This document shows positions 11,517 to 57,165 of a stretch of DNA of 64,000 bases, one piece after another. The notes under the pieces are model-generated. The model was not told where the DNA came from. It worked only from the letters and a program-made list of their open reading frames with translations, and searched no databases. Numbering within the stretch: the stretch's first letter is position 1; each line of letters starts with the position of its first letter. A program made the position numbers and the translations under genes. This stretch comes from Gammaproteobacteria bacterium (lineage in GTDB: Bacteria > Pseudomonadota > Gammaproteobacteria > UBA9214), in NCBI GenBank assembly GCA_029860045.1, contig JAOUBY010000003.1:65-64064 (forward strand), read 5' to 3'.

Positions 11517-11603
11517 ATTAAAACCTGGCACGACCTGCAGGTGCTGTAACTTGTGTTAAGTACCGGGGGCGTCAATTCTTATAAGGAACAGAAGGGATTC
11601 ATC

Positions 11604-16729: not shown

Positions 16730-16911
16730 CGGATGAACAGGGTCGGGCACCGCGTTACGTTTAGCTGTCCCCCGTCCGGGCACCACGTGTTGTCTCCGCT
16801 GCAGATTGCTGCAGCACCGGGTGGGCCAGCCAGGAAATTCATTAATCAGCACTGGTGATTGCACCAGTCTGACCGGCTGTCGGGGTGAGCCCTATCCACG
16901 TCGGTATTCCG

Positions 16912-16942
16912 AAAAAAAGCCGCGGCAGTTGCCGCGGCTTTT
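16912..16942. terminator. Bidirectional rho-independent terminator between convergent genes
   Basis: aaaaaaaGCCGCGGCAgttGCCGCGGCtttt: a perfect GC hairpin flanked by an A-run on one side and a T-run on the other. Confidence 0.7.
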
Positions 16943-16995
16943 GTCTGGTGAAGGGGCAGGCAGGCTGCCCCTGTCTAGCGGGTTTCCCGGTCGGT

Positions 16996-20340: not shown

Positions 20341-20357
20341 AAGCACGACTCGTGCCA
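20341..20357 (-). promoter_or_regulatory. sigma54 (RpoN) -24/-12 promoter for the PEP-CTERM protein gene
   Basis: Minus-strand TGGCACGagtcGTGCTT: 7/7 match to TGGCACG, canonical GG-N10-GC spacing, -12 GTGCT vs TTGCW. About 85-100 nt upstream of the ATG at 20261; a sigma54 activator (prsR) is encoded in the locus. Confidence 0.6.
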
Positions 20358-22015: not shown

Positions 22016-23239
22016 ATGTCAATGATTGTTCTGGCGCTGCGCAATCTGTTTCGGCATTGGAAACGGACGGCCATTGCCCTGGCCGCCATTGGTTTTGGCG
22101 TGATTGCCCTGTTGCTTGCAGGCGGGTTCATCGATTGGATCTTCTGGGGTATGCGGGAGGGGGCTATCCAGTCACGCCTCGGCCATATACAGATCACCCG
22201 CCCCGGCTATTTTGAAACTGGAAGTGCGGATCCTTTTGCGTACCTGCTACCCGATCAGCTAAACGAAGAGGAAATTATCGGGTTGCGGCCCGAGATTCGA
22301 GTAATTACACCACGCTTGGCATTCAACGGCCTGATCAGCCATGGCGATGTCACGATTGGATTTTCCGGCGAAGGTGTGGATCCCGAAAAAGAGGCATCCG
22401 TCAGTCAGCATTTAATCATCACAAAGGGTGAGAACCTTGGCCCGGATGATCCGACAGGCCTGTTGCTGGGTGCCGGGTTGGCTGACAACCTTGGTGTAAC
22501 CGTGGGGGATAGTGTGGTCCTGCTGGCGAATACGGCATCCGGCGGGTTAAGTGGTGTTGAAGGGCCGGTGCGTGGCTTGTTCCAGAGTGCATCGAAGGCA
22601 TTTGATGACGCCGCGTTGCGGGTGCCGGTTGATACTGCCAGAAGCCTGTTGCGGGTCTCCAGTGCCCATAGCTGGGTACTGTTACTGGATGAAACCGAAA
22701 AAACAGATGAGGTTCTGCTGTATCTGCAGGAACGCTTCCCGGTATCGGAAAGCGGTTTGCAGTTCACTCCCTGGTACGCACTGGCCGATTTCTATAACAA
22801 GACAGTTGCCTTGCTCTCCCGGCAAATGAGCGTGGTCCAGCTGATCATCGCCCTCATTATTGTACTCAGTATCTCCAATACCCTGGTGATGAGCGTGCTT
22901 GAAAGAACCGGCGAGACGGGGACGTTGATGGCCATCGGAGTCAGGCGTCGAAGAATATTGCATATGTTTGTTACTGAAGGTCTGTTATTGGGAGTGATAG
23001 GTGGTTTGGGTGGGGTTGCCGTGGGAGGCTTGTTGGCCATGGTCATATCAGCTGTCGGCATCCCGATGCCACCCCCGCCCGGTATGGATGTGGGCTTTAG
23101 CGGGAAGATCCTGCTTAGTTGGCCACTGATTGCCGGAGTGATGGCGCTTGCCATTGGAACAACATTATTGGCGAGCCTCTACCCGGCCTGGAAGGCTTCG
23201 CGCCTGGAGATTGTAAATGCGTTGCGCCATAACCGATAA
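22016..23239 (+). CDS. ABC transporter permease, FtsX/LolC/LolE (MacB-type) family
   Basis: MSMIVLALRNLFRHWKRTAIALAAIGFGVIALLLAGGF N-terminal TM, a large periplasmic domain and three C-terminal TM helices: LolC/E topology. Confidence 0.85.
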   Translation: MSMIVLALRNLFRHWKRTAIALAAIGFGVIALLLAGGFIDWIFWGMREGAIQSRLGHIQITRPGYFETGSADPFAYLLPDQLNEEEIIGLRPEIRVITPRLAFNGLISHGDVTIGFSGEGVDPEKEASVSQHLIITKGENLGPDDPTGLLLGAGLADNLGVTVGDSVVLLANTASGGLSGVEGPVRGLFQSASKAFDDAALRVPVDTARSLLRVSSAHSWVLLLDETEKTDEVLLYLQERFPVSESGLQFTPWYALADFYNKTVALLSRQMSVVQLIIALIIVLSISNTLVMSVLERTGETGTLMAIGVRRRRILHMFVTEGLLLGVIGGLGGVAVGGLLAMVISAVGIPMPPPPGMDVGFSGKILLSWPLIAGVMALAIGTTLLASLYPAWKASRLEIVNALRHNR

Positions 23240-23298
23240 ATCTAACTACGGGACGACATTATGATTTCAGTCCATATTATGAGTGTCAGTTAATTACC

Positions 23299-24510
23299 AT
23301 GTTTCTGCTGGCATTCCGCAGTATTTTCCGTCACAAGGTAAGAACCGGTTTGACCCTTGCCGCTATTATCTTCGGTGTGGGCAGCCTGGTTCTCATCGGC
23401 GGTTTTGTTGAGGACATTTTTATTCAGTTGCAAGAGGCAACAGTTCATTCGCAGCTCGGCCACATTCAGGTCTATCGTTCAGGTTATACAAAGCTGGGGC
23501 GACGCAACCCTTACGGGTATCTGATTGATAAGCCGGAGCAGATATTGGAGTCTGCCGCTGATTTACCCCAGGTGTCAGATCAACTCCTGCGGGTGAAATT
23601 CGCAGGTCTGGCGAATAATGGTCGTGCGGACCTGCCAGTGATAGGGGAAGCTGTCCAGCCTGACAAGGAGGCGCGACTCGGAAGCGCGATGACTATCACC
23701 AGTGGCAGGCAGCTTACCGGTAATGACCCCCACGGTATTCTTGTCGGTCAGGGGGTGGCGGATGCCTTGCAACTCGAGCCGGGTGATTATCTTACCTTGC
23801 TTGTCAACACAACCGACGGTGTACTTAATAGTCATGAGTTCGAGGTGATTGGTATATTCCGGACTTTTGCCCGTGATTATGACAACCGTGCTGTTCGCAT
23901 TTCACTGGTTTCCGGACAGGACCTGATTGGGACCAGTGGAGTGCACAGCGTCGTGCTGTCACTTGACACCACTGAAGCCACGGACTCTGTGGCAAGGGCC
24001 CTGCAACAACAACTCACCCCGCAGGACTATGAAGTAAGAACATGGTATGAGCTTTCCGATTTTTACGGCAAGACAGTTAATCTTTACCGCAGGCAATTTA
24101 CCGTCCTGCAGCTCATCATCCTGTTGATGGTCCTGTTAACCGTGGCAAACAGCGTGAACATGGCGATCTACGAGCGTATCGGGGAATTTGGCACCCTGAA
24201 GGCCCTGGGCGACAGGCAGCGGGATATCTTCCGGCAGGTCATGAAGGAAAATATGCTGCTGGGTCTGCTTGGTGCGGGTTTGGGAGTGGCTATCGGTGTC
24301 GCACTGGCATGGGCGATATCCGGGGTCGGGATAGACATGCCGCCACCGCCGAATTCCGATGTGGGTTATACCGCCTACATTCGCCTGGTTCCCGGGGTGA
24401 TTGCTATGGCCTTCGGGGTTGGCGTTATTGCGACGGTGTGTGCTGCACTGTTACCCGCCTGGCGTGTCTCGCGACTGCCCGTGGCCGAGGCCTTGCGGGA
24501 GAATGTGTGA
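23299..24510 (+). CDS. Second FtsX/LolC/LolE-type ABC permease (tandem paralog)
   Basis: Same architecture as the previous gene (MFLLAFRSIFRHKVRTGLTLAAIIFGVGSLVLIGGF...). Confidence 0.85.
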   Translation: MFLLAFRSIFRHKVRTGLTLAAIIFGVGSLVLIGGFVEDIFIQLQEATVHSQLGHIQVYRSGYTKLGRRNPYGYLIDKPEQILESAADLPQVSDQLLRVKFAGLANNGRADLPVIGEAVQPDKEARLGSAMTITSGRQLTGNDPHGILVGQGVADALQLEPGDYLTLLVNTTDGVLNSHEFEVIGIFRTFARDYDNRAVRISLVSGQDLIGTSGVHSVVLSLDTTEATDSVARALQQQLTPQDYEVRTWYELSDFYGKTVNLYRRQFTVLQLIILLMVLLTVANSVNMAIYERIGEFGTLKALGDRQRDIFRQVMKENMLLGLLGAGLGVAIGVALAWAISGVGIDMPPPPNSDVGYTAYIRLVPGVIAMAFGVGVIATVCAALLPAWRVSRLPVAEALRENV

Positions 24511-24523
24511 GGTCCGAAGGGCG

Positions 24524-25378
24524 CTATCTCGCTAGTTTTTTCAGATAATTCTTGGTAAAGGTCTTGTCCGGCAGCTTGCGCAAGCGCATGCCGCTGTAGT
24601 CCATGACGGAACGGCCTTCCTTGTGCAGGGCATCTTCCATAATGAGTTGGGTCGGACGTATCGTGTTGCCAAAATTCTGGTAGGCCCGGAAGTGGCAGGT
24701 TTTTATCAGCCGGTTGGACAGGGTAAAAAACTCAGCCTTGAAGGGTCTGTAATTGGCCTGATTGACCCAGTAAAGCACGCGGTGGTATGTCACACCTCTG
24801 CGCGACGCCTTCAGTTCGAGTAAGTAATAGTTTTCTTTTCCGATAGTCTCGGTACGCAGCAGGGTGGGTTCATAGTCGCCGGTAAAGTTGGCACGCGCGA
24901 GGTCGCCATTGGCCACTTCGCCGGTGAGCTTTTGTGACAGGGGCAGGCGTACCGGCTGGGACAGGTTGGGGAGGAATGCCCACAGGTCATGATCGCGCAT
25001 GAGTAGAATGGTGCCCTTGTCGATGGCGGGCGCCGTGGTCATCAACAGGGTTCTGTCATTGCCTTTGGACAGTACCCGGTATTGCTTGACCTCGGGGTCG
25101 CGATCGGGCCCGGTGGTGGTGACCTTGATATCGACCTGGAACCCTTCTGCGGGGAAGCGGATCCGGTCCGCCTTTTCCACGATCTGTTGCGGGGTGAACT
25201 TTGCTGCTTTGGCCGCAAATACATGTGATGTCTGCCCGGATAAATTCCAGCACAATACAATTAACACGGCGGCTGCAATCCGCCCGTATCCTGGTAAAGA
25301 GCCTGGCTTGCCAGGCGTAGAGTGTGATTTTCCTGTCACTGTGGGTATCCGTAAAATGGTCAGGCTTGTGTTGCGCAA
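24524..25378 (-). CDS. LolA-like periplasmic outer-membrane lipoprotein-sorting/carrier family protein; start uncertain
   Basis: Signal segment IAAAVLIVLCWNLSGQTSHVFA and a soluble beta-rich domain resembling LolA-like lipoprotein-sorting proteins that commonly sit beside FtsX permease pairs. Convergent with the permease genes. Confidence 0.6.
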   Translation of the reverse strand: MRNTSLTILRIPTVTGKSHSTPGKPGSLPGYGRIAAAVLIVLCWNLSGQTSHVFAAKAAKFTPQQIVEKADRIRFPAEGFQVDIKVTTTGPDRDPEVKQYRVLSKGNDRTLLMTTAPAIDKGTILLMRDHDLWAFLPNLSQPVRLPLSQKLTGEVANGDLARANFTGDYEPTLLRTETIGKENYYLLELKASRRGVTYHRVLYWVNQANYRPFKAEFFTLSNRLIKTCHFRAYQNFGNTIRPTQLIMEDALHKEGRSVMDYSGMRLRKLPDKTFTKNYLKKLAR

Positions 25379-25804: not shown

Positions 25805-26485
25805 ATGCTGAGTGACTTCCTGGTAAGTGTTAAGAAGGTCTCCAAGGAATATGCCTTCGGCAAACAGAAAGTACAGGCGCTCAGGGAGGTCTCCCTGGCC
25901 GTGCTCGGTGGCGAGTTTCTGGCGATTGCAGGGCCCTCCGGCAGCGGTAAGTCGACCCTTCTGAATCTGATCGGCTGTATTGATACGCCAACAACCGGCT
26001 CTATTTCTATAGAGAATCAGGAAACCGTTAACCAGACGCCCGACCAGTTGGCAGACCTGCGTGCCCGAAAAATCGGCTTCATATTCCAGACGTTCAATCT
26101 GTTACCGGTACTTTCCGCGTTTGAAAACGTGGAATACCCGCTGCTTCGCCTTAAACTGGACAAGACAGAACGGCATCAGCGCGTGTCTCAATATCTTGAA
26201 CTCGTCGGGGTGAACGAGTTTGCAACACACCGGCCTAACCAGCTAAGTGGCGGTCAGCGACAGAGAGTCGCCATAGCCAGGGCATTGATTGCCCAACCCA
26301 GTATTGTCCTGGCCGACGAACCAACGGCCAACCTCGATCACAGGACGGGCGAGGGTATCCTCGACCTGATGTCGCGTATCAACCGGGACAATGGCACGAC
26401 CTTTATCTTTTCCACACATGACGCCCGGGTGATCGAGATGGCCGGCCGGGTGGTCAGGCTAAGCGATGGTGAAATTGTTCAGTAA
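25805..26485 (+). CDS. ABC transporter ATP-binding protein (LolD/MacB-type ATPase)
   Basis: Walker A GPSGSGKST, ABC signature LSGGQRQRVAIARAL, Walker B ILLADEPT; 226 aa. Confidence 0.9.
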   Translation: MLSDFLVSVKKVSKEYAFGKQKVQALREVSLAVLGGEFLAIAGPSGSGKSTLLNLIGCIDTPTTGSISIENQETVNQTPDQLADLRARKIGFIFQTFNLLPVLSAFENVEYPLLRLKLDKTERHQRVSQYLELVGVNEFATHRPNQLSGGQRQRVAIARALIAQPSIVLADEPTANLDHRTGEGILDLMSRINRDNGTTFIFSTHDARVIEMAGRVVRLSDGEIVQ

Positions 26486-26599: not shown

Positions 26600-28579
26600 T
26601 CATTCCTGCCAAAGCAGTTTTTCGAACGGTTTTCTGATAGAGCGCGCTGTCGGGTCGCGACCCGCGCCGATTCTGCCCATGAAGACGGCGTGTTCAACCT
26701 TTTCCGGTAATACCAGTTGTGCAAGCCGGTCGGCCAGTTTCCCTGCCAGTTCCTGACTGTGTTTATTTTCCGAAAACGCCACATTATCCCGTGTGTAGCC
26801 ACTGAATATCAGCGGTGTCATTTCCGGCTGGAGTTTCAGGCCATGCAGGGTGGCCGTCAGCCAGAAACGTTGCACGGCGCGGCCGGCTGCTACAAAGTCA
26901 TCCAGGGTTTCCGCTGGGCGGGATGCCATGATTATAAAATGTGACGCGCATGCGATTCCGGGAATGAAGTCCAGTTCCACGCGCGGAATGAGTGTTCCGC
27001 CCATGAAGCGATTGAGGAAGTCCACGCGCCGCCAGCTGACCATGGCCCAGCGCATCAGCTGCAAGGTCATGGGATCCAGCCCTACCGCCCTGGCGGGAAC
27101 CCGGTCTTCACTGTGCCTGGAATCCCACTGGATGATGGACCTGTGTGTTTCAAAGGCTTCAGGAAGGGTAAGGCGCAGGCCACCATTCTGGAATAGCAGT
27201 CGCGCCATACGCAAACGGTCGCGGAAATCATTGAACCATACAATGCGATATTCACTGCCAACGGCCGTCTCCAGCTGTTCTCGAACGCTGGCAGTAACCG
27301 GCCGGGTTGATAGCGGCCGCCGTTGTACAGTGCGCTCGCTGATAAAGGGCAGCAAGGGATCTTTCTGGATATTCGGGTCAGCAAGGAATGCGACATCGAA
27401 GGTCGGACTGGTCGCAGGCAGTCCCGGGCGTGCCCGGAACTCGGCGTACAGGCCATGGTGACTGGCCGCGATGCTGATGGTTTCAAGCAGCGTGCCCAGT
27501 GCGAGCTGGCTGGCATGGCCCCTCAGGTCGTAGACGCAGTGCTCGCGCGTATCGTGGCCGTGAATAACCGCATGGTGCGGGTCGATAATTTCAAACCGCC
27601 ACGGCTGGCTGTTGTCTCCGCTGGGGGCCCAGCGGGCATGATCCAGTATTTGCCGGGCCACGCTGTTACTGGCTCCGGCTGCTTTGCCCCCGTCAGGGGG
27701 CGGGGCAGATGTTAATTTCTGGCTGAATCTGCGTCTTGCCAGCATGAGGCCAAGTTGTTGCAGCGGGTTTCGATTCCCTCCCGGGCGCCAGGTTGTAACC
27801 AGTTGGTTACGGTAGGCGTCGAAATGAAGGCCGTGTGGTGCGGCAATGACCTTGCCGCGTCCAAGCAGTATTTTCAGTGCCTGGGTGGCCGCAATGCCGG
27901 AGCACAGCTCGCAGGCCATTGGAGTTGATGGCCCCCGGTGTTCGGCAAGCCTGACTGCTGTCGGGTCAACCAGGTAGCGACCCTGCAGCATGGCAGGAGA
28001 AAGGCCGAGCAGGAACCGCAGCAACTGTTCTTCCTCGTCATGGCCATCAAGTTGAAAGTATTCCTCGAACGTCATGCTGCCGGGCAGAAAATTCAATAAC
28101 GCGGCGCCCATGCCAAGCGGTGCAGCGGTAACCGCCGGAACACCCAGCCGGCTGCAGGAATCGAACGCAGCACGTCGTGCCTCAAGGGCAAAAAAATCCA
28201 GACCGTCGATGTACAGGTCAATACCCGTCAGAAAATCATCTGCATTGCCCTGATCAATCCCGTCGGGGAATATTCTCAGGTCAAGCTCCGGGTTGATGTC
28301 CAGCGCACGTTCTGCAAGGGCATCGGTCTTCTTTCTTTCGAGGGTGGAGAGGGCGGCTCCTGCCTGGCGGTTGAAATTCGCGATCTCGAAGGAGTCGAAG
28401 TCAGCCAGTGTGAAGGCGCCGATCCCGAGACGTGTCAGGGTCAGCAGGTGACTGCCCCCGACGCCGCCGAGTCCTGCAATGGCGACACGTTTGGTGCGCA
28501 GTGTGGCTTGCTCTGATGATGTGACCCAGCCGATGTTGCGTGAGAATGCGGCTGTATAGTCGAATTGGCCTGTCGACAT
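26600..28579 (-). CDS. Fusion protein: N-terminal ThiF/MoeB E1-like adenylyltransferase domain plus C-terminal nitroreductase-superfamily (SagB/McbC-like) domain
   Basis: N-terminus RVAIAGLGGVGGSHLLTLTRLGIGAFTLADFDSFEIANFNRQ (E1 Rossmann GxGxxG plus NxxRQ). C-terminal half ARQILDHARWAPSGDNSQPWRF is nitroreductase signature. ATG at 28579 preferred over the TTG at 28600. Confidence 0.8.
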   Translation of the reverse strand: MSTGQFDYTAAFSRNIGWVTSSEQATLRTKRVAIAGLGGVGGSHLLTLTRLGIGAFTLADFDSFEIANFNRQAGAALSTLERKKTDALAERALDINPELDLRIFPDGIDQGNADDFLTGIDLYIDGLDFFALEARRAAFDSCSRLGVPAVTAAPLGMGAALLNFLPGSMTFEEYFQLDGHDEEEQLLRFLLGLSPAMLQGRYLVDPTAVRLAEHRGPSTPMACELCSGIAATQALKILLGRGKVIAAPHGLHFDAYRNQLVTTWRPGGNRNPLQQLGLMLARRRFSQKLTSAPPPDGGKAAGASNSVARQILDHARWAPSGDNSQPWRFEIIDPHHAVIHGHDTREHCVYDLRGHASQLALGTLLETISIAASHHGLYAEFRARPGLPATSPTFDVAFLADPNIQKDPLLPFISERTVQRRPLSTRPVTASVREQLETAVGSEYRIVWFNDFRDRLRMARLLFQNGGLRLTLPEAFETHRSIIQWDSRHSEDRVPARAVGLDPMTLQLMRWAMVSWRRVDFLNRFMGGTLIPRVELDFIPGIACASHFIIMASRPAETLDDFVAAGRAVQRFWLTATLHGLKLQPEMTPLIFSGYTRDNVAFSENKHSQELAGKLADRLAQLVLPEKVEHAVFMGRIGAGRDPTARSIRKPFEKLLWQE

Positions 28580-28848
28580 TAACCTGTTTCCGGGTTGCAA
28601 ATACCAATTTACGACATTGAATTCAGCATGGAAGCAGTTGCTGATCGATTCTGGCGCCCGACATGATTTCTACCAGGCAAAGTTCTGTGGCGCTAATAGT
28701 ATGTTGTGTCAGGTGGTGTGTCTAATGCTATTAAGAGGACTGACCTGGCGACGTCCTTCTGGCGTGACCATGCATTGACCTGTTTAATCGATGCCGGCTT
28801 TTCATGCCTGACCTGAAAGGCGGTTTCAGATGCCGGTATAACGTCAAT

Positions 28849-29055: not shown

Positions 29056-29829
29056 ATGAGTGATTTGTGTGATTTATTTTTTCAGTACTTTGATGTCATT
29101 CTGGACGATCAGCCGGGTGTTATAGACGAAGCCACCAGACTTCGCTACCAGGTGTATTGCATAGAAAATGATTTTGAGGATGCGTCCCGGTTTGATGATG
29201 ACAGGGAAGTGGATGAGTATGACCGGCGTTCTGTTCACAGTGTTGTCAGGCACAGGAAGCTGGGAGTAACCGCAGCCTCTGTCAGGCTGGTCCTGTCAGA
29301 CCAGGAATGTCCTGAAGCGCTTTTCCCGATCGAGGAGAACTGTGCTGCATCCCTAAAGGCCTGTCCTTCAATCTTTCGTGGTATCCCGCGCAATGCCATA
29401 GCTGAAATATCACGCTTTGCCGTTTCCAAGGATTTCAAGCGCCGGCATGGCGAGGCCGGCAACCCTGCCGGTGTCGGTCCAGACCCGGACCGGTATCTAA
29501 CGCCTGATTTAAACAGGCGGAGAGTCATTCCCCACCTGATCCTGGGTTTATTTGCCGCGATAGTAAAAATGAGTGCAGAGCATCATGTTACCCACTGGTA
29601 TGCCGTGATGGATGTTTCTCTGCTGCGCCTGTTGACCCGCTTTGGTATCAACTTCATGCCCATGGGAGGGCAGGTGGATTACCATGGATTGCGGCAACCC
29701 TGCTTTGGCAGTGTGGACGAGGTGCTGGCCGGGATATGGGAGAAACGCCCGGATATCTGGCGCTTGATCACTGCTGACGGGGTCGTATGGCCAGCCCCGG
29801 CAGATCATGCCGTGAGTGCCGGTGGATAG
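29056..29829 (+). CDS. GNAT-fold N-acyl amino acid synthase/autoinducer-synthase-like acyltransferase (PEP-CTERM/exosortase-associated acyltransferase family), copy 1
   Basis: 257 aa; the RLRYQVYCIENDFED N-terminal block and overall length match FeeM/NasY-type N-acyl amino acid synthases and the exosortase-associated acyltransferase family (TIGR03694-like, from memory). Confidence 0.7.
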   Translation: MSDLCDLFFQYFDVILDDQPGVIDEATRLRYQVYCIENDFEDASRFDDDREVDEYDRRSVHSVVRHRKLGVTAASVRLVLSDQECPEALFPIEENCAASLKACPSIFRGIPRNAIAEISRFAVSKDFKRRHGEAGNPAGVGPDPDRYLTPDLNRRRVIPHLILGLFAAIVKMSAEHHVTHWYAVMDVSLLRLLTRFGINFMPMGGQVDYHGLRQPCFGSVDEVLAGIWEKRPDIWRLITADGVVWPAPADHAVSAGG

Positions 29830-30096
29830 TGTTGGGTGGTAGAACGCTGCGGGTGATTTGATCGATTCGCTTTACCGGTTAGCCAACATAGTCTTCAATC
29901 TGTCCCTCCGGCTTTCCTGTCGCTAGCTAGTGACATTGAAATACCAATAAAAACAGATAGGTATATAAATTATATTAAATGCTGTCGTCACCCGGCGACA
30001 GTTCTGCCGAGCAGAGTGTTGTATTGCCCCGGTTTTACCCTGTGGGCTACCCCATTGATTTTTTAACTCACTGTAATTACTGATTAATAGTGTCTC

Positions 30097-30112
30097 TGGC
30101 ACGATTATCGCA
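30097..30112 (+). promoter_or_regulatory. sigma54 (RpoN) -24/-12 promoter for acyltransferase copy 2
   Basis: TGGCACGattaTCGCA: 7/7 -24 element, canonical GG-N10-GC spacing, -12 TCGCA vs TTGCW. About 100 nt upstream of the ATG at 30215. Confidence 0.6.
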
Positions 30113-30214
30113 TTTCCCATGCGTAATTTAGCTTCATGACATGGAAACAGGCCACTGGGCCGCCGTGTCCATGAGCGAACCGCAAACTACTTTTCCCGGG
30201 TTGATGACAAGCAC

Positions 30215-30970
30215 ATGAGCGAACTCTATAACACGTTTCATAGCCATTTCGACGTGGTCTCGGCGGATACCGTCGGCCTGATGGAGACGGCCTTCAGGAT
30301 GCGTTACCAGGTCTATTGCCTGGAGAGGTCATACGAAGATGCAGAGTCCTTTCCGGACCAAATGGAGATTGACGAGTTCGATATGCACTCGGCCCACAGC
30401 CTGGTGAGGTGCCAGCGATCCGGGCAGTATGCTGGCCTGGTCAGGCTGGTCCTGCCAAATCCGGTAGATATGGACAAGCCGTTACCACTGGAGAAATTCT
30501 GCCACTCTGCCATGCAGAAAGCGGGTATTGATTTATCTTCCATTCCCCGGGACCGCATGGCTGAAATCTCGAGATTTTCGATTTCAAAGGAACTAAAGCG
30601 TCAGTGTGCGCAGAAGTCTGCTGTTTCAGCCACCGGTGATGTTGTTGATGGCGTGGATACCCGGATGACGCCACAAATAGTACTCGGTCTGTTTGCGGGG
30701 GTCGTTCGAATGAGTGCCCAGAACAATATTACTCACTGGTTGGCTGTTATGGAGCCAACCTTGCTCAGGTTCCTTTCACGCTATGGCATCTACTTCCAGA
30801 AGATCGGGCCGGTGATTGACTATCATGGCCGGCGGCAACCGACGGTTGCGAGCATCGATTCAGTATTGTCAGGGATTTATGCCCATCGTAAGGATGTCTG
30901 GGAAGTGATTACTGATTTTGGAAATGTCTGGCCGTTGGATAAGGAAGTCAAACATTTTGCAATGCCGTAG
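30215..30970 (+). CDS. GNAT-fold N-acyl amino acid synthase-like acyltransferase, copy 2 (tandem paralog)
   Basis: 251 aa; alignable to copy 1 throughout (FRMRYQVYCLERSYEDAESFPD...MAEISRFSISKELKR...THWLAVMEPTLLRFLSRYGI). Confidence 0.7.
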   Translation: MSELYNTFHSHFDVVSADTVGLMETAFRMRYQVYCLERSYEDAESFPDQMEIDEFDMHSAHSLVRCQRSGQYAGLVRLVLPNPVDMDKPLPLEKFCHSAMQKAGIDLSSIPRDRMAEISRFSISKELKRQCAQKSAVSATGDVVDGVDTRMTPQIVLGLFAGVVRMSAQNNITHWLAVMEPTLLRFLSRYGIYFQKIGPVIDYHGRRQPTVASIDSVLSGIYAHRKDVWEVITDFGNVWPLDKEVKHFAMP

Positions 30971-31107: not shown

Positions 31108-32814
31108 TCAGAACGTATAGCGCACGTTGCCATAGACCCTGTCGCTGTCATCGAAACGTCCAAACAGACCGGACGAATTTCCGCCAAATATATCGGCGCC
31201 GACTGCCAGCCACCAGTTATCCGACATCTCCCAGGTCACCTTGGGTCTCGCCATCCAGTCGCTGCGATTCAGGCCGGTTACCAGCAGCAGTTCCGCATCT
31301 ACCCGGTTGGCAATTTCCTTGCTGACGTACAGGCTGACACCGGTTTCCAGTTCATCGAAGAGAATGTCCGAGTCGTGGTCCGTATACCAGCGCTGGAATA
31401 GCTGAACATTCAGCAATGTGCCATTGGTATATGAGTGTTCGAGGCCTACTACATAATCGAGTGTGTCCTGTTGTGTTGCGCCATCCGGGTCGAGAGGGTT
31501 GTCTACAGTAAACCAGCGATCACGTGTATAGACAGCCTCGCCCTTCAGCAGGATGTTGCCAAAATCCTTTGCCACGGTGGCGCCAAGCTGGTGAATCCTG
31601 TCATGCCTGGGAGTGATGGTGAGTCGTGTGGTCATGCCTGTCTCAAGGGTGCTGAAAAACGCGGGAGAGGCATCCATGCTGCGGTAATAAAAGCCGGATA
31701 CATCCCAGCCGTGTTTCAGCATGGAAAGCCGCAGGCCAAATGCGCTGTTGGACAGCTTTTGTGACGGTTTAACATCCCCCTCGATAACCAGTTCATCCAC
31801 ACCGGGTGGTAGTTCTGTGCCCAGGGGGTAGAAATCGTCACCAGGCTTGCCGATCTCGTCATAGGTCATGTAGGGGATCCAGATGGCCTCGGTGTGAAAG
31901 TCCCCCTTGAAGTATTCTGCGCGCGCTGCCCATTGCGGGATACGTATGAGGTCAAAATCCTCTGCGACCAACTGGCGCATATCCTTTGCCGAAACGACAT
32001 CGGCAAAGAACAGTCCAACCATCTCGCCCCAGATAATGTGCTGTCTGCCCAGGCGAAACTCCAGGTCACCTGCCGAGATATCCAGGTAGGTCTCGTGTAG
32101 CGCGCCTTCAAGGCGCCGGTTGTCTTCAACACGGTCAGAATAGAAATTATCCAGGTCAAAGACTGCGTCGTAACTGCCGCGGGCGCTGACCTTCCAGGAA
32201 ACATTCTGGTTGATGCGGTCGCTGGCCTGTAGTTCCAGCGTGTTGCGGAACATCGAGGGGTGGGTAGGTGACGAATAGGTGTGGGCGTATTTTGAGTTGA
32301 AAAATCCCCGGAAATTGTATTTGTCGGTCCCTGCCTTGTCGTTGCTTGCCTGGCTCTCATCCGGGGCCGAGAGGAACAGGTCATCAATGCCGGCAGGCTC
32401 ACCTGGCCCGTCCTCTGCCCTGGCGCTACCGGTGTCCTGTCTCGTGGACGCATTGCTGCTGGCCTCGGCTAGCAATACAGGGGTGCCTGACGATGGGCTG
32501 GTCACAAGAAAACCGGGGATGTCCATGGCATCGAGCCGTTTGTGCATATATTCTGCAGTTGCCCGTTCCGGGTAGGGCCCAACCCGGACGCGGGTCAGCG
32601 ATCTTGAGCCTTTATCATTAATAATGGTGGTTGCGGGGAAACCCTGCTGCTCCAGTTTTTCCACAAACTGGGTGGCCTGGCCCTGGTCCCTGAAGGCGCC
32701 AACCTGGACGGTGTAATCGGCGCGGGAGATGATCTGGAACTGCATCATGCCGAGAGTTGCGAGGGCTGTGATGATCCAGTGTCGGGTTCGATTTAGTCGT
32801 GTCGATTTATTCAT
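31108..32814 (-). CDS. Outer-membrane beta-barrel protein with N-terminal SPOR (peptidoglycan-binding) domain
   Basis: After the signal peptide, YTVQVGAFRDQGQATQFVEKLEQQGFPATT...RVRVGPYPERATAE is a SPOR domain. It is followed by about 400 aa with alternating amphipathic strands ending in the C-terminal Phe motif ...NVRYTF typical of OM barrels. Confidence 0.7.
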   Translation of the reverse strand: MNKSTRLNRTRHWIITALATLGMMQFQIISRADYTVQVGAFRDQGQATQFVEKLEQQGFPATTIINDKGSRSLTRVRVGPYPERATAEYMHKRLDAMDIPGFLVTSPSSGTPVLLAEASSNASTRQDTGSARAEDGPGEPAGIDDLFLSAPDESQASNDKAGTDKYNFRGFFNSKYAHTYSSPTHPSMFRNTLELQASDRINQNVSWKVSARGSYDAVFDLDNFYSDRVEDNRRLEGALHETYLDISAGDLEFRLGRQHIIWGEMVGLFFADVVSAKDMRQLVAEDFDLIRIPQWAARAEYFKGDFHTEAIWIPYMTYDEIGKPGDDFYPLGTELPPGVDELVIEGDVKPSQKLSNSAFGLRLSMLKHGWDVSGFYYRSMDASPAFFSTLETGMTTRLTITPRHDRIHQLGATVAKDFGNILLKGEAVYTRDRWFTVDNPLDPDGATQQDTLDYVVGLEHSYTNGTLLNVQLFQRWYTDHDSDILFDELETGVSLYVSKEIANRVDAELLLVTGLNRSDWMARPKVTWEMSDNWWLAVGADIFGGNSSGLFGRFDDSDRVYGNVRYTF

Positions 32815-33422
32815 GCCTTGTTTTCCCGCATGGTGAGCAGCCTGGGTCAGGCTACATGTGGCTGGTAATGGGTTGCCTGATATTAAATGAACAACGAAGG
32901 CAAATGATACAGCATGATATCCGACTGCTCATCTCTATGAATGATGAACATGGCGTAAGGATTGGTCTGCAGTCAACTCATTGTCTGGCTGGATGGCTAC
33001 GCGTTGCATATCCAAAGGCCAGCTTGTCCGGCACCATGTGCCAGCGCTTCCCTGGATATTAGCTGACTTCAGTTGAAGTTTTGGGTCCGTACACAATGTG
33101 TTCGGCGGTGTGTTCTGAAAGCGCTGTCAATAATGGCCCGTGTTCGCCAATGCTGGGCCGCAGCATCAAGTGTGCATGTGCCACCACACCTTACTCGGTA
33201 CATATACTGAAGAAGAAGTCTTAGTCTTTGTAAAGTATGAATTTTTCATATGAATTTTAGTACTAAAGGCCAAGTGACATTTAATACCGCAGGTATTATA
33301 GTCTCAAGGGCTAGGTGACTGATATTTGACGTTAAATTGGCCTGAATAAATTTGTGTCTCGGCCGAGGATAAGTAAAGAAATAGAGAATTATTCAGCAAT
33401 CGTTATCCACAGGGGTTCAACT

Positions 33423-34058
33423 ATGAACACTATTAAATCTTCCTCAGCCATCATCAAGGCTGGTGTTGTCTTCATGATTTTGCTGGGTCTATCGGGATGT
33501 GCGACAACCGACTATCCCCCGCTTGAGGGCGGGCCGGCCCCCGCCCAGGTAACGCCGGACTATCTCATCGGTGCGGGTGACAGCGTCGAAATCTTTGTCT
33601 GGCGTAATCCGGAGCTGTCGAGCGGTGTGACGGTGCGTCCGGATGGCAAGATTACGACCCCTCTGATCGAGGATGTTCCCGCCAGCGGCAAGACGCCGAC
33701 CCAGTTGGCGAGAGACATGGAACAGGAACTCTCGGCCTACGTAAAGAACCCGGTCGTCACCGTCATGGTTGGCGGTTTTGTGGGTCCCTACAGCGAGCAG
33801 ATCCGTGTGGTCGGCCAGGCGGCCAACCCGCAGGCACTGCCTTATCGCGACCAGATGACAATGCTGGATCTGGTTATCGCAGTGGGTGGCTTGACGGAAT
33901 TCGCAGACGGTAATCGCTCAAGCATCGTGCGGGTGGTCGATGGGGAATGGAAACAGTTTGGTGTGCGCATCGATGACCTTGTCAACGGAGCGGATATCAG
34001 TGCCAATGCCTATGTGCTGCCTGGCGATATTCTGATCGTCCCCGAATCATGGTTCTAG
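33423..34058 (+). CDS. Polysaccharide export outer-membrane lipoprotein, Wza-like (PEP-CTERM locus EpsE-type exporter)
   Basis: Lipobox LLGLSGC. Poly_export domain motifs (YLIGAGDSVEIFVW...VTVRPDGKITTPLIEDVPASGKTPTQL) and a soluble ligand-binding beta-grasp region. Confidence 0.85.
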   Translation: MNTIKSSSAIIKAGVVFMILLGLSGCATTDYPPLEGGPAPAQVTPDYLIGAGDSVEIFVWRNPELSSGVTVRPDGKITTPLIEDVPASGKTPTQLARDMEQELSAYVKNPVVTVMVGGFVGPYSEQIRVVGQAANPQALPYRDQMTMLDLVIAVGGLTEFADGNRSSIVRVVDGEWKQFGVRIDDLVNGADISANAYVLPGDILIVPESWF

Positions 34059-35799: not shown

Positions 35800-36764
35800 T
35801 GAGTATTTTTGAGAAGGCCTTCGAGAAGGCGGGCAAGAATGACGGCGAGCGCCCGGCAGATGATCTGTTTGACGATCGCGCAGATAATTTGCCGGATTTC
35901 CCCGGGGATCCTGTCGAGGGTGAACCTGAATCCGTATCTGCAGATACAGAGGACAGTGCAGGGGTGGCGGAAACTGTCGTGCAGCAGGAACCGTGGAACG
36001 AGGGTCTGTCGCACACAGGTTCGGGCAAACTGGTCAAGCTGGATCTTAGTGGACTGAGAGATGCCGGGCTGGTCGATCCCCGGTCAAAGGAGGTCAACCG
36101 GACTACTGAGGAATTCAGGCGCATCAAGCGCCCGCTGCTCATGAATATCAGGGGCGAGGGGGCAAGCGTTGTCCCTAATGCCAACATGATCATGGTGAGC
36201 AGTGCACTGCCCGGTGAAGGGAAGACATTTACATCGATCAACCTGGCAATGAGCATCGCCATGGAAATGGACAGGACGGTGCTGCTGGTCGATGCCGATG
36301 TCGCGAAACCTGATGTTACCGCACGCCTCGGTGTTGAGGCGGAAAAGGGACTGATCGATGTGCTGCTGGATGACAGTCTTACGTTGCCGGACGTTTTGCT
36401 GAGGACGGATATCCCCAAGCTGGCATTGCTGCCTTCCGGCAGTCGGCATGTCCACTCAACAGAATTGCTTGCCAGTGAGCGCATGAGGCAGCTCACGCTG
36501 GAGCTTTCCAGCCGTTATCCGGACAGGATCGTGATTTTTGATTCTCCGCCACTGCTTTTGGCCAGTGAGGCGCGGGTGCTTGCAGGCTTGATGGGGCAGG
36601 TCGTGATGGTGGTTGAGGAGTCCATGACGCGGCAGCATGCTGCCCAGGAGGCAGTCGAAATGCTTGCGGATAACGAAATTGTAGGAATTGTCATGAACAA
36701 GGGCAGGCACAAGTCGAAGGAGGGAGGGTACGGGGGCTATGGCTATTACCCTTATACACGGTAA
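35799..36764 (+). CDS. Bacterial tyrosine (BY) protein kinase of the EPS locus (EpsG-like)
   Basis: Walker A SALPGEGKTFTSINLA, Walker B VLLVDAD and the C-terminal tyrosine cluster GGYGGYGYYPYTR. The ATGA overlap with the upstream gene gives a split Wzc arrangement. Confidence 0.85.
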   Translation: MSIFEKAFEKAGKNDGERPADDLFDDRADNLPDFPGDPVEGEPESVSADTEDSAGVAETVVQQEPWNEGLSHTGSGKLVKLDLSGLRDAGLVDPRSKEVNRTTEEFRRIKRPLLMNIRGEGASVVPNANMIMVSSALPGEGKTFTSINLAMSIAMEMDRTVLLVDADVAKPDVTARLGVEAEKGLIDVLLDDSLTLPDVLLRTDIPKLALLPSGSRHVHSTELLASERMRQLTLELSSRYPDRIVIFDSPPLLLASEARVLAGLMGQVVMVVEESMTRQHAAQEAVEMLADNEIVGIVMNKGRHKSKEGGYGGYGYYPYTR

Positions 36765-36795
36765 CAACCCGGTAATCCTTAAGTTGACAAGTACC

Positions 36796-38334
36796 ATGAC
36801 TCAAACCAGGAATCTTGCAAGGCTCCAGCTAACCCTGGTTCTACTTCTGTTGTGCGCAAATTCTGTCAATGCGGGTGACTGGGATATCACGCGGAGTATT
36901 ACCGTTGGTGCAAATTTTAGTGACAATGTCAGTCAGGATGATGGCAATAAGGAAAGTGATCTTGTAACTGAAATCAGACCCGCAATCAGTGTGCATGGTG
37001 AGGGCGGTCGGCTGAAGGCCGATATTGATTACGCTATGCAAAATGCAATTTTTGTTAATAATAGCGACGCCAACGGGGTTTTTCACCAGCTGGATGCCAA
37101 TGCCACGGTGGAGCTTGCGAAAAACCTGTTGTTTGTTGATGCATCCAGTGGCATGGGGCAGTCAATCATTGACGCAAGTGATAGCGTGTCAACAGGCAAT
37201 CTGGGTAATACCGGGAACCGCACTAACTTTTATACCTATAGCCTGAGTCCCTATATTCAGCCACACTTTGGGGGTTATGCCGACGGACTCTTTCGCTATA
37301 CCCACAGCGAGGTTGCCCTTGACAGGGGTGCCTCCGACTCAAGCATAGAAAGCCTTGATGCAGGTCTTACAAGCGGGCGGAATTTTGGGCCGTTTTCCTG
37401 GTCTGCCAATTACAATTATTCTGATCAGCAGCGAAGTACCGCTTCCAATGCAAAATTCGAGAATTCCAATGCCCAGGCGCGTTATCGCATCAGCCGTCGC
37501 TTCAGCCTGGTCGGCTCGGCAGGTTATTCCAGTAATGAATTCGAGAGCAGCAGGGATGTCGTGAACGGTAGCTACTGGTCTGCTGGCGTATTCCTGCAAC
37601 CAAGCCGTTATTACTCCCTTGAGGCGCAGCAGGGCAATAATCTGAAAACTGCAACGGTGAGCCTGTACCCGACCCGGCGTACCTCCATGCTTGCCACTTA
37701 CAGTGACCAGAGTGTGGGTCTGAATCCGGGTGAAGTATGGTCAGGATCTTTAAGTCACTACACGCGGCGCACTACCTGGAGTGCAAGCTACAGGGAAGAT
37801 ACGACGACGCAGCAGCAGCTGTTTCTCGAGCCAGGGGGTTTTGTGATTATCGGGGTTGATCCACTTACTGGCCTGGGTCGTGACCCCCCCCAGCCGGGTG
37901 ATCTGCTTGTCCCGGCGCCTTTCCCGCCGTTCCTGACGCTTACTGACGAGGTGGTTGAGCGCAAACGTGCTTCAGGTACGTTCGGTATGAAGATGGGAAA
38001 GACCGGGCTGCGGCTCACTGTGTTTGACGAGAGAACCCTGTTCCTGACATCGCTTATAGAAAATGAGACAAAGGGTCTCAGTGGCAGTCTCGACCGTCGC
38101 CTGGCACCGCGAACCAATGGCATCCTGTCAGGTTCATACCAGCGCATAGCTGACGCTGATATTGGCAACGACCTTGTGGATATCTTCATGTATGTTCAGG
38201 CCGAGGTGACACGGCAAATGAGCAAAAAATCAAACGCTTCTGTGTCTTACCGCTTCACCATGCGAGACTCCAATGATAATAATCGCGACAGCAATGAAAA
38301 CAGGATAACGGCGAAGCTGAGGTACTTTTTCTGA
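36796..38334 (+). CDS. Putative outer-membrane beta-barrel protein, PEP-CTERM-system-associated family (TIGR03016-like)
   Basis: Signal peptide LQLTLVLLLLCANSVNA, a Ser/Tyr/Asn-rich strand-forming sequence and C-terminal ...KLRYFF. Confidence 0.75.
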   Translation: MTQTRNLARLQLTLVLLLLCANSVNAGDWDITRSITVGANFSDNVSQDDGNKESDLVTEIRPAISVHGEGGRLKADIDYAMQNAIFVNNSDANGVFHQLDANATVELAKNLLFVDASSGMGQSIIDASDSVSTGNLGNTGNRTNFYTYSLSPYIQPHFGGYADGLFRYTHSEVALDRGASDSSIESLDAGLTSGRNFGPFSWSANYNYSDQQRSTASNAKFENSNAQARYRISRRFSLVGSAGYSSNEFESSRDVVNGSYWSAGVFLQPSRYYSLEAQQGNNLKTATVSLYPTRRTSMLATYSDQSVGLNPGEVWSGSLSHYTRRTTWSASYREDTTTQQQLFLEPGGFVIIGVDPLTGLGRDPPQPGDLLVPAPFPPFLTLTDEVVERKRASGTFGMKMGKTGLRLTVFDERTLFLTSLIENETKGLSGSLDRRLAPRTNGILSGSYQRIADADIGNDLVDIFMYVQAEVTRQMSKKSNASVSYRFTMRDSNDNNRDSNENRITAKLRYFF

Positions 38335-42664: not shown

Positions 42665-43930
42665 ATGGAAGAATTGTTGTTTCTTGCGCACCGCATCCCC
42701 TATCCACCCAACAAGGGTGACAAGATCCGGTCGTACCATATTCTCAAGCACCTGGCCCGTTCCTACCGTGTTCACCTGGGTGCCTTTGTTGATGATCCGG
42801 ACGACTGGAAGTATCGGGACAAGCTCGAGGAGATATGCGCATCGACCTGCCTGTTGCCGCTGCATCCTCTGAAGGCGAGGGCGCGCAGTTTAACCGGGCT
42901 GCTGAGCAACTCGGCAATGAGTGTAAGTTTTTTCCGTGACCACAACATGCAGCAGTGGGTAAATGCGCGGCTGGAACAGGACAGCCTGCAGCGGATTTTC
43001 GTGTTTTCGTCTCCCGTGGCACAGTATGTTATGAACAGTCAGGCGTCATCATGCCGCCGGGTGGTCGATTTTGTGGATGTCGACTCGGACAAGTGGAAGC
43101 AATACGCGCAGCACAAGCGCTGGCCGGCAAGCTGGCTTTATCGCAGGGAAGCGGAACGTCTGCTGGCATTCGAGAAGAATGTCGCCACCCTGTTTGATGC
43201 GAGTATCTTTGTGTCTTCTGCAGAGGCAGCGCTGTTCAGGCGGCTGGTGCCGGAGGTGTCCGCAAGGACGGGCTTCCTTGATAACGGTGTTGACCGGGAT
43301 TATTTTTCCCCGGAAAGAAACTACGATAATCCCTGTGACGAACAGGCGAAGATCATTGTTTTTACCGGCGCCATGGATTACTGGGCAAATGTACATGCCG
43401 TCCAGTGGTTTGCACTACACGTGTTGCCGCGCGTACGCGAGGCTGTTCCCGCGGCAAAATTTGTCATCGTCGGCGCCAGGCCGGCCAGCGAGGTGCAGCG
43501 GCTGGCGTCTGTGCCGGGTGTAGAGGTGACTGGTGCGGTCCCGGATGTGCGTCCCTATCTTGCACATGCGTACGTTGCTGTTGCGCCACTACGCATTGCC
43601 CGTGGTGTGCAGAACAAGGTACTGGAGGCCATGGCCATGGCCAAGGCGGTTGTTGCCTCACCTGCAGCTGTGGAAGGCATAGAATTCAACAACCCTGCGG
43701 AGCTGCGGGTGGCGGATAGTGAGCAGCAGTTCGCGGAACAGGTTATTCAGTTTCTGTGCGATGACAAGCCTGCCGTAGCCCGGGATTCCAGGCAATGGAT
43801 ATCAGATAGATACGACTGGAATAACAATCTTTCCCGGGTAGGGGGCCTGCTTGAATGTCCATCGCCCTCGGGATATTTGCACGGGATTGCGGGTCGGCAA
43901 GCGGCTAACACGGAAGAGAAGTCTGCATGA
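42665..43930 (+). CDS. GT4 glycosyltransferase, PEP-CTERM/exosortase A system-associated (stp1-like)
   Basis: C-terminal GT4 region (EAMAMAKAVVASP) and an N-terminal block FLAHRIPYPPNKGDKIR typical of this subfamily. Confidence 0.8.
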   Translation: MEELLFLAHRIPYPPNKGDKIRSYHILKHLARSYRVHLGAFVDDPDDWKYRDKLEEICASTCLLPLHPLKARARSLTGLLSNSAMSVSFFRDHNMQQWVNARLEQDSLQRIFVFSSPVAQYVMNSQASSCRRVVDFVDVDSDKWKQYAQHKRWPASWLYRREAERLLAFEKNVATLFDASIFVSSAEAALFRRLVPEVSARTGFLDNGVDRDYFSPERNYDNPCDEQAKIIVFTGAMDYWANVHAVQWFALHVLPRVREAVPAAKFVIVGARPASEVQRLASVPGVEVTGAVPDVRPYLAHAYVAVAPLRIARGVQNKVLEAMAMAKAVVASPAAVEGIEFNNPAELRVADSEQQFAEQVIQFLCDDKPAVARDSRQWISDRYDWNNNLSRVGGLLECPSPSGYLHGIAGRQAANTEEKSA

Positions 43931-54865: not shown

Positions 54866-54884
54866 CTTGGACAGGCTTCGGATT

Positions 54885-57161: not shown

Positions 57162-57165
57162 TAAC

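Follow-up and report, generated by a model that had tools for sequence, protein, structure and literature searches.

A SPOR domain on a DUF1302-type outer-membrane barrel and its conserved Lol-like gene neighborhood in a gammaproteobacterial PEP-CTERM/XrtA locus

INTRODUCTION

Canonical DUF1302 proteins are outer-membrane barrels, reported as 18-stranded (PMC13499233), that are cofit in transposon sequencing (Tn-seq) with a LolB-like DUF1329 partner and a resistance-nodulation-division (RND) exporter, and export of envelope components has been proposed for them (10.1101/072470; PMC13499233). A high-confidence predicted DUF1302-DUF1329 complex has also been reported (PMC13499233). SPOR domains bind denuded glycans, and in RlpA the determinants are Q270, which contacts the lactyl group of N-acetylmuramic acid, and an arginine patch consisting of R302, R309, and R311 (PMC6895207). 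In PilQ, AMIN domains that bind peptidoglycan bring the type IV pilus machine to the sites of future division (PMC5285504), and fusions of AMIN to outer-membrane transport modules have long been documented (PMC2572700). Here we describe a gene that joins a SPOR domain to a DUF1302-type barrel in a 64,000-nucleotide stretch of DNA (the window) from a gammaproteobacterium of lineage UBA9214 (GenBank assembly GCA_029860045.1, contig JAOUBY010000003.1, positions 65 to 64,064 of the forward strand).

The explanation that we favor, with moderate confidence, is that this barrel is the peptidoglycan-anchored outer-membrane end of an uncharacterized Lol-like export module linked to exosortase-associated N-acyl amino acid synthases.

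RESULTS

The gene encodes a SPOR domain, a flexible linker, and an outer-membrane barrel

The gene is a minus-strand open reading frame (ORF) that runs from the ATG at 32814 to the stop codon at 31108 to 31110 and encodes 568 amino acids (aa) ending in NVRYTF. A chance ORF is excluded because thousands of homologs exist. The gene and its parts, with the evidence for each, are as follows.

31108 to 32814, minus strand: whole gene, encoding a 568-aa SPOR-linker-DUF1302 outer-membrane protein (ORF listing, Pfam, homologs, AlphaFold2 model)
32719 to 32814, minus strand: signal peptide, residues 1 to 32 (MNKSTRLNRTRHWIITALATLGMMQFQIISRA / DY), with an S-R-A site of the signal peptidase I type (sequence reading, homologs, model)
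32500 to 32718, minus strand: SPOR domain, residues 33 to 105, at the very N terminus of the mature protein (Pfam, PDB sequence matches, fold)
32317 to 32499, minus strand: disordered periplasmic linker, residues 106 to 166, rich in S, A, D, E, G, and P (predicted local distance difference test [pLDDT] scores, homolog comparison)
31111 to 32316, minus strand: DUF1302-type beta-barrel, residues 167 to 568, with a C-terminal Y-T-F beta-signal at 31111 to 31119 (Pfam, AlphaFold2, Foldseek)

Pfam places SPOR (PF05036) at residues 32 to 105 (E = 1.2e-15; 58.0 bits against a cutoff of 21; profile positions 3 to 76 of 76) and the outer-membrane barrel family DUF1302 (PF06980) at residues 189 to 568 (E = 1.5e-16; 60.9 bits against a cutoff of 23.2). 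Searched alone, the barrel region reaches 62.9 bits against DUF1302, covering profile positions 79 to 541 only. In NCBIfam, the only matches of the whole protein are to the SPOR portions of the FtsN, RlpA, and DedD models, none of which reaches its cutoff, and no model was found for the barrel. The PDB sequence matches of the SPOR domain are FtsN (1UTA), CwlC (1X60), and DedD (6ZTG); a PDB sequence search with the family profile returned SPOR domains only, with no close solved structure for the barrel. Sub-threshold Pfam matches of the barrel include PelB_C and Wzi, and membership in the latter was not accepted (E = 0.013; 15 bits against a cutoff of 30.1). Across 91 homologs, the final Phe and the Tyr of the YTF ending are each conserved in at least 90%, and the length of the linker differs between homologs.

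The public gene call for this protein (P0001) is 546 aa long and starts at Met23, leaving out 32749 to 32814 (minus strand). We rejected this start as too short and take the ATG at 32814 as the true one because homologs conserve the longer signal peptide. This region is kept in homologs P0003, P0004, and P0009 to P0011, and the signal peptide of P0004 matches closely (MNKSTQSNRTWRWIITALASLCLMQFQTISRA / DYSVQVGAF). It forms a helix at positions 6 to 26 of the AlphaFold2 model, and cleavage is predicted after S-R-A, before DYTVQVGAF. A start at Met23 loses most of the signal peptide, and automated predictors would then miss the export of the protein.

Taken together, the SPOR-linker-barrel architecture is almost certainly real, and we are highly confident that the product is an outer-membrane beta-barrel from a short subfamily of DUF1302 and carries SPOR on a flexible periplasmic linker of ~60 residues. 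An earlier note, made from the sequence of this DNA, had proposed an N-terminal SPOR domain and a C-terminal outer-membrane barrel ending in YTF; the Pfam matches to PF05036 and DUF1302 and the AlphaFold2 model bear out the two domains, and the ORF does end in YTF. The same note had thought this architecture rare, which it is not: both Pfam domains are present in 71 of the 120 best 90%-identity clusters, at identities down to 41%. Among the candidates examined, 2,596 proteins match at an E value of ≤1e-5, and an exhaustive scan of 1.84 billion cluster representatives gave 308 clusters at ≤1e-30 and 1,356 at ≤1e-10. Relatives are encoded in at least 565 species-level genomes, mostly of uncultured Gammaproteobacteria; other carriers are Thiobacillus, Nitrosospira, Accumulibacter, Sulfuricella, Nitrotoga, Methyloversatilis, and Dechloromonas. 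One member bears the Joint Genome Institute label "SPOR domain/Protein of unknown function (DUF1302)." In the literature searched, we found no paper describing a SPOR-DUF1302 fusion and no account of the features presented below, namely the Lol-like module conserved around the barrel, the exchange of SPOR for AMIN, and the DDLF motif. The fusion is thus common in uncultured Proteobacteria and visible in automatic annotation, yet undescribed in the literature searched.

The barrel gene is accompanied by a Lol-like module

We compared synteny around the barrel gene by tblastn with the window proteins at 80 species-level loci, the best of at least 565 matches; 43 of these loci have at least 8 kb on each side, and the fractions given below refer to them. 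The recurring neighbors, with the median identity of their orthologs where determined, lie in the window as follows.

25805 to 26485, plus strand: LolD-like ATP-binding cassette (ABC) ATPase (43/43 loci; 67%)
24524 to 25378, minus strand: soluble periplasmic LolA-like protein, PF17131 (42/43 loci; 56%)
22016 to 24510, plus strand: two LolC/E-like permeases at 22016 to 23239 and 23299 to 24510, MacB_PCD plus FtsX in Pfam (36/43 loci; 55%)
26600 to 28600, minus strand: ThiF-nitroreductase fusion, PRK08223 at 438 bits in NCBIfam and supported by Pfam (27/43 loci; 57%)
29056 to 30970, plus strand: two TIGR03694 exosortase-associated acyltransferases of the N-acyl amino acid synthase type, at 29056 to 29829 and 30215 to 30970 (17/43 loci)
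14399 to 15688, plus strand: EryCIII-like/GT28 glycosyltransferase (18/43 loci)

The ATPase gene is found at every locus and in 38 of the 43 lies directly upstream of the barrel gene on the same strand, which indicates that the two are co-transcribed. The partner orthologs have median identities of 55 to 67%, against 52% for the barrel, and independent gene calls labeled with Pfam gave matching sets of neighbors. Given this synteny, the barrel is probably coupled functionally to the Lol-like module.

The best NCBIfam match of the ATPase is LolD (224 bits against a cutoff of 308) and that of the permeases is lolCE (110.8 and 90.6 bits against a cutoff of 362). Since these scores fall below the equivalog cutoffs, the proteins are paralogs of LolD and LolC/E and not the housekeeping Lol system. 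The LolA-like protein matches PF17131 at an E value of 3.5e-47 (Pfam) and has no model in NCBIfam; it is the ortholog of PDB entry 3BUU, the "uncharacterized LolA superfamily protein NE2245" of Nitrosomonas europaea (E = 3.7e-84). It carries a VFA/AK signal peptidase I site and no lipobox, and the true start of its ORF is probably internal, giving 271 aa. The partners described for canonical DUF1302 proteins are missing here: no DUF1329, BNR protein, or RND exporter is encoded among the scanned window proteins or in the inspected contexts of relatives, and their place is taken by PF17131 and the LolCDE-like ABC transporter.

The two acyltransferases match TIGR03694 at E values of 5e-76 and 7e-80 in NCBIfam and FeeM plus Acetyltransf_5 in Pfam. 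The ThiF-nitroreductase protein is 666 aa long; its ThiF part is an E1-like adenylyltransferase, and it is related to the Rv1355c family. Glycosyltransferases of the EryCIII-like/GT28 type usually act on lipophilic acceptors, and the recurrence of one here hints at a glycolipid product. Such a gene is also present at 12022 to 13233 of locus L007 and at the end of locus L090, and in Halieaceae it stands right after a gene for an AMIN-barrel.

One relative shows the module in another setting. In the genome of P0042, which is 46% identical (loci L003/L004, 10001 to 21686), the operon reads ABC, SPOR-barrel, FtsX, FtsX and continues with an AMP-ligase, a methyltransferase, two short-chain dehydrogenases/reductases, a FabA/ApeI-like dehydratase, and a ketosynthase, with no exopolysaccharide (EPS) genes nearby. 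This cluster resembles fatty-acid or aryl-polyene-like lipid clusters, and the ATPase of the operon has 731 aa, against 226 aa in the window. Both this genome and that of P0003 encode the barrel together with the Lol-like module and have no gene nearby for an outer membrane polysaccharide export (OPX) protein.

SPOR and AMIN domains occupy the same N-terminal slot

The beta1 glutamine of the SPOR domain is Q37 (VQ37VGAF) and is kept in 69 of 74 SPOR-bearing homologs, 71 of which keep the GP[YF] motif, while R75 and R77 (R75-V-R77-VGPY) supply the basic patch of the domain. Because these residues correspond to Q270 and the arginine patch of RlpA, the SPOR domain looks functional, with putative binding of glycans.

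AMIN is unrelated to SPOR, yet it also targets proteins to septal peptidoglycan. In seven relatives of the barrel protein (P0033, P0035, P0158, P0149, P0155, P0123, and P0154), an AMIN domain takes the N-terminal slot that SPOR fills here, with Pfam E values of 1e-13 to 8e-5 that are all over the cutoff. This interchange of SPOR and AMIN in one slot is the best available support for the idea that the domain tethers or localizes the barrel.

In a neighbor-joining tree of the barrel region, SPOR-less members fall several times inside SPOR-bearing clades. The tree is rough, has no support values, and was sampled in favor of SPOR-bearing sequences, so that repeated loss is indicative only. In the comparison of loci, tblastn at an E value of ≤1e-5 misses some divergent SPOR domains. 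Remnants of SPOR such as ADHAVQAGV persist in some SPOR-less members. As an indication only, this pattern suggests a SPOR domain that may be old in the subfamily, open to selection, and dispensable.

The linker carries a further element.

32374 to 32391, minus strand: linker motif GIDDLF, family pattern S-x-[DE]-[DE]-L-F-G (motif comparison in the family)

A [DE][DE]LF sequence stands ahead of the barrel in 44 of 91 members, including 16 of the 17 that lack SPOR and the two that carry AMIN; examples of such pre-barrel linkers are those of P0020, P0025, P0033, P0072, and P0083, and some members carry two to three tandem copies. The frequency of the motif is far above chance, and it is more widespread than SPOR. 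The S-x-[DE]-[DE]-L-F-G pattern may be the peptide on which a periplasmic partner docks.

The predicted barrel contains a strongly conserved loop

The AlphaFold2 model was built on a 91-sequence alignment and lacks Met1, so that model residue n is ORF residue n+1; its mean pLDDT is 85.5 and its predicted template modeling (TM) score is 0.71. The SPOR region has a beta-alpha-beta-beta-alpha-beta, RNP-like fold at model residues 33 to 104 with a pLDDT of ~95 (DSSP: E33-40, H43-55, E60-65, E72-80, H83-95, and E101-104). Model residues 109 to 161 of the linker are disordered, with a pLDDT of <50, and residues 166 to 567 form an all-beta barrel with a pLDDT of >90. Read from the DSSP string, with no coordinates, the barrel has about 20 strands, periplasmic turns of 2 to 5 residues, and long external loops. 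Foldseek against the PDB retrieved only outer-membrane porins (OmpF-type and generic 16-stranded) at a probability of 1.0, with TM scores of 0.38 on query length and 0.59 on target length. No PgaA, Wzp, BcsC, or AlgE-type structure is among the top 50 PDB matches, a comparison in which the fold discriminates poorly among outer-membrane barrels.

The family is most conserved in one loop of the barrel.

31936 to 32040, minus strand: most conserved stretch of the family (GRQHIIWGEMVGLFFADVVSAKD...RIPQW), a loop of ~35 residues between strands 5 and 6, ORF residues 259 to 293 (alignment, model)

Of the 40 columns that are invariant in the 91-sequence alignment, 18 fall in this loop, which is modeled as coil or short helix between strands 250 to 257 and 293 to 302. 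It probably folds into the lumen in the manner of a porin constriction loop and is likely a lumen or binding element.

The adjacent EPS operon has a barrel of its own

On its other side, the barrel gene faces an EPS operon, and the window as a whole is one large PEP-CTERM/XrtA super-locus. Its order is PrsK/PrsR/PrsT-like regulators, a PepA-like PEP-CTERM protein, the Lol-like module, the two acyltransferases, the barrel gene, and the EPS operon. The features that bear on the comparison are the following.

32815 to 33422, no strand: 608-bp intergenic spacer separating the divergent barrel and OPX genes (sequence)
33423 to 34058, plus strand: Class-3 OPX lipoprotein, the XrtA/PEP-CTERM EPS export protein (TIGR03027, E = 8.9e-71; lipobox LSGC)
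36739 to 38334, plus strand: TIGR03016 PEP-CTERM-associated barrel within the EPS operon (NCBIfam, E = 8.9e-76)
43927 to 45513: XrtA, in the canonical EPS operon
18978 to 20261, minus strand: PepA-like PEP-CTERM protein (super-locus annotation)
5210 to 14399, plus strand: PrsK/PrsR/PrsT-like regulators, comprising a GAF histidine kinase, a sigma-54 response regulator, and two all-TPR proteins of ~945 aa in tandem

The OPX protein starts at the ATG at 33423 and has 211 aa consisting of Poly_export and SLBB only, without the C-terminal outer-membrane helix of Wza. Class-3 OPX proteins are defined in this way and need a separate barrel (PMC9603273). An XrtA-type EPS operon lies within 10 kb of the barrel gene at only 11 of the 43 loci. 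The TIGR03016 barrel is present at 11 of the 11 loci that have an OPX gene, and of the two barrels it is more likely to partner the OPX protein at the outer membrane. The earlier note had placed the gene divergent from a Wza-like operon across about 600 bp, and the spacer is indeed 608 bp long; this divergent arrangement of barrel and OPX genes recurs at loci L010, L012, L026, and L027. The note had gone on to suggest that the protein would tether an outer-membrane channel to peptidoglycan and may localize EPS export to specific sites. Tethering or placement through peptidoglycan is plausible, given the conservation of Q37 and the use of AMIN in the same slot, whereas the tie to the EPS exporter is weak. 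The link to EPS holds at the level of the exosortase super-locus and not as a direct pairing with Wza.

Within the divergent spacer, a sigma-70 scan gave weak matches only, not above chance. A window-wide search for sigma-54 boxes (TGGCACG-N4-TTGCW, up to 2 mismatches) gave 16 matches against 14.2 expected, none of them in the spacer. Two one-mismatch -24/-12-type boxes are suggestive by position alone, the window-wide count not being above chance: TGGCACGAGTCGTGCT at 20342 to 20357 (minus strand), ~80 nucleotides (nt) upstream of the PEP-CTERM gene (18978 to 20261, minus strand), and TGGCACGATTATCGCA at 30097 to 30112 (plus strand), ~100 nt upstream of the second acyltransferase gene (30215).

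Several other features of the super-locus were noted. In relatives L005 and L089, genes for Prs-type regulators directly adjoin the barrel gene. A 598-aa ORF at 16996 to 18792 (minus strand) belongs to no Pfam or NCBIfam family, yet tblastn finds it conserved at 6 of the 43 loci; the other strand carries an overlapping 322-aa ORF (16885 to 17853), for which there were no matches. The far end of the EPS locus (53657 to 61779, plus strand) encodes squalene-hopene-cyclase-C-like, formyltransferase, Wzy_C/DUF5935 polymerase-like, sulfatase/lipoteichoic acid synthase-like membrane, and MBOAT acyltransferase proteins, which suggest heavy modification of the polymer.

DISCUSSION

The neighborhood of the barrel gene is consistent with a route across the envelope. 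The Lol-like ABC transporter would extract an acylated product from the inner membrane, the LolA-like carrier of the NE2245 type would take it across the periplasm, and the barrel would receive it and insert or release it at the outer membrane. As cargo, the best candidate would be a product of the neighboring enzymes, either a lipid of the N-acyl amino acid type or a glycolipid, although we put forward an acyl-amino-acid-type cargo only tentatively. The SPOR domain would bind peptide-free (denuded) glycan strands and thereby anchor the barrel to peptidoglycan, and it would probably deliver the barrel to division sites and new poles, comparable to the AMIN domains of PilQ that preinstall the type IV pilus machine. 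Since the module sits in a PEP-CTERM/XrtA super-locus, it would probably serve the formation of EPS or matrix indirectly and not as an EPS pore. In Methylomonas LW13, knockout of one enzyme of the exosortase-associated synthase type led to loss of polysaccharide band formation (PMC11072679).

Several points weigh against this explanation. The loci compared are related to one another, and their counts are therefore not independent. In the window itself, the barrel gene is 4.6 kb from the ATPase gene, on the opposite strand, and next to the OPX operon. The EPS operon is found near 6 of 9 SPOR-bearing loci and 5 of 34 SPOR-less loci (Fisher P = 0.004), a difference that is confounded by phylogeny. 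SPOR seems, as an indication only, to have been lost repeatedly and would then be unnecessary for the core function. Lipid extraction is not the only task of type VII ABC transporters, which also act in MacB efflux and FtsEX signaling. Finally, every functional statement made here, including those on the cargo and the direction of transport, is drawn purely from synteny and homology.

The position of the gene beside the OPX operon raises the alternative that the protein provides the adjacent Wza-like EPS exporter with its outer-membrane channel or peptidoglycan tether, serving as the barrel partner of the Class-3 OPX protein and fixing the sites of EPS secretion. An OPX protein of 211 aa without an outer-membrane-spanning Wza_C helix does need a separate barrel (PMC9603273), the divergent pair recurs at four further loci, and SPOR-bearing loci are the ones enriched near EPS operons. 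Weak matches to Wzi, a capsule lectin barrel, point the same way; in Pfam they stay below threshold, with an E value of 0.013 here and down to 6e-5 in relatives. We nevertheless consider this unlikely: at each of the 11 loci with an EPS operon, the operon supplies its own TIGR03016 barrel, the near-universal neighbors of our barrel are the Lol-like genes, and these are kept in the P0003 and P0042 genomes, where no OPX gene is nearby. Structures of the PgaA, Wzp, and AlgE types are likewise not in the top 50 Foldseek matches. A tether for an EPS pore is thus an attractive idea that is poorly supported, and we correct it here.

Two further alternatives dispense with the EPS exporter. The immediately upstream ATPase gene, on the same strand at 38 of the 43 loci, is hard to reconcile with a peptidoglycan-tethered channel of general function, a porin or a route of uptake for hydrophobic substrates. 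Such a channel would join an envelope staple in the style of OmpA or OmpM to the uptake of fatty esters or aromatics proposed for DUF1302/DUF1329 of Pseudomonas, and it would have the Lol-like genes as neighbors for regulatory reasons only. Nor do catabolic genes flank the barrel at the loci examined, and a specific 35-residue loop would not be expected to be the most conserved part of a nonspecific porin. This reading is improbable, even though the DUF1302/DUF1329 mutants of Pseudomonas putida are defective on fatty esters, members occur in aromatic and hydrocarbon catabolic clusters, the Foldseek matches are general porins, and a peptidoglycan-binding domain joined to a barrel is the classic layout of an envelope staple. 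We give very little credence to a translocon for exosortase-processed PEP-CTERM proteins, in which XrtA would move the cleaved protein onto a lipid or acyl-amino-acid acceptor and the Lol-like system would sort it to the barrel for surface display. The window is a single XrtA/PEP-CTERM super-locus with a PEP-CTERM gene beside the module, Lol systems do sort acylated proteins, and what becomes of PEP-CTERM proteins once they are cleaved is an open question (PMC1569441). However, there is no evidence for lipidation of PEP-CTERM proteins, a PEP-CTERM gene like that of the window is near the barrel at only 5 of the 43 loci, and the module of P0042 adjoins a fatty-acid/polyketide-like cluster instead.

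Returning to the barrel as the outer-membrane end of a Lol-like export module, a more ambitious and rather doubtful version can be formulated. The barrel would be the terminus of an undescribed Lol-paralog pathway dedicated to exosortase/PEP-CTERM systems and composed of a LolCDE-like extractor, an NE2245-type carrier, and a DUF1302 acceptor. N-acyl amino acid lipids or glycolipids might be its cargo, or even PEP-CTERM proteins linked to a lipid, with the machine preinstalled at division septa by interchangeable SPOR or AMIN domains and docked through the S-x-D-D-L-F peptide.

A wall-binding domain on a barrel will come as no shock to specialists. If the proposed export module is real, it would offer a concrete export route for the long-chain N-acyl amino acids of exosortase-associated synthases, whose role in the formation of flocs, granules, and biofilms, for instance in wastewater and methanotroph systems, is unexplained, and the module would be a direct experimental handle on it. 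It would also give a working context to the structural-genomics orphan 3BUU (NE2245) and to a branch of the "dark" DUF1302 family, for which no structure has been solved. The SPOR/AMIN interchange would then be a natural experiment in how components of outer-membrane transport are placed or anchored through septal peptidoglycan, extending the idea of preinstallation from PilQ to integral beta-barrels.

Comparison with described systems

The closest systems are the DUF1302/DUF1329 pairs, such as PP_0765/PP_0766 of P. putida and Sama_1588/1589 of Shewanella, which likewise combine a homologous barrel with a LolA/LolB-like periplasmic partner and an inner-membrane exporter. The present barrel is shorter than canonical DUF1302 proteins (~400 aa, profile positions 79 to 541), and its subfamily adds an N-terminal SPOR or AMIN domain and the DDLF linker motif. 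Its periplasmic partner is PF17131 of the NE2245 type, and the inner-membrane partner is a LolCDE-like ABC transporter and not the RND/BNR pair. The LolCDE-LolA-LolB system shares the two FtsX/MacB-type permeases, the ATPase, and the soluble carrier of the LolA superfamily, but the acceptor in the module described here is a DUF1302 barrel in place of the lipoprotein LolB, and the genes are paralogous. A barrel as the outer-membrane acceptor is in turn what the module shares with LptB2FG-LptA-LptDE.

With respect to the wall-binding domain, FtsN, DamX, DedD, and RlpA have the same SPOR family and fold, of which the key Gln and the basic patch are retained here. Their SPOR domains are C-terminal and sit on an inner-membrane anchor or a lytic transglycosylase, whereas here SPOR is the first mature domain and is attached to an integral barrel; RlpA, an outer-membrane lipoprotein, is a precedent for SPOR on an outer-membrane-anchored protein. 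PilQ with its N-terminal AMIN domains resembles the present protein, as do the AMIN-TonB-receptor and AMIN-OEP fusions, in placing a septal-peptidoglycan-targeting domain on an outer-membrane transport module. PilQ is a secretin and not a DUF1302-type barrel, however, and SPOR is unrelated to AMIN in sequence and recognizes denuded glycans. OmpA (a barrel with OmpA_C) and OmpM/Slp (SLH with a barrel) also join an outer-membrane barrel to peptidoglycan in one polypeptide, and in OmpM the wall-binding domain is N-terminal and the barrel C-terminal, the same order as in the SPOR-barrel. Their wall-binding domains are unrelated to SPOR, Pfam finds neither OmpA_C nor SLH in the SPOR-barrel, and the likeness is functional only; unlike a major structural porin, the present protein forms part of a dedicated transport module.

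The Class-3 OPX/barrel translocon WzaX-WzpX of Myxococcus xanthus is similar in that the exporter adjacent to our gene is a Class-3 OPX protein that needs a barrel, but the synteny of the present family is not tied to OPX genes, and the EPS operon already has its TIGR03016 barrel. The protein therefore belongs to the SPOR and DUF1302 families of Pfam and stands outside the canonical DUF1302/DUF1329/RND, housekeeping Lol, and OmpA/OmpM families.

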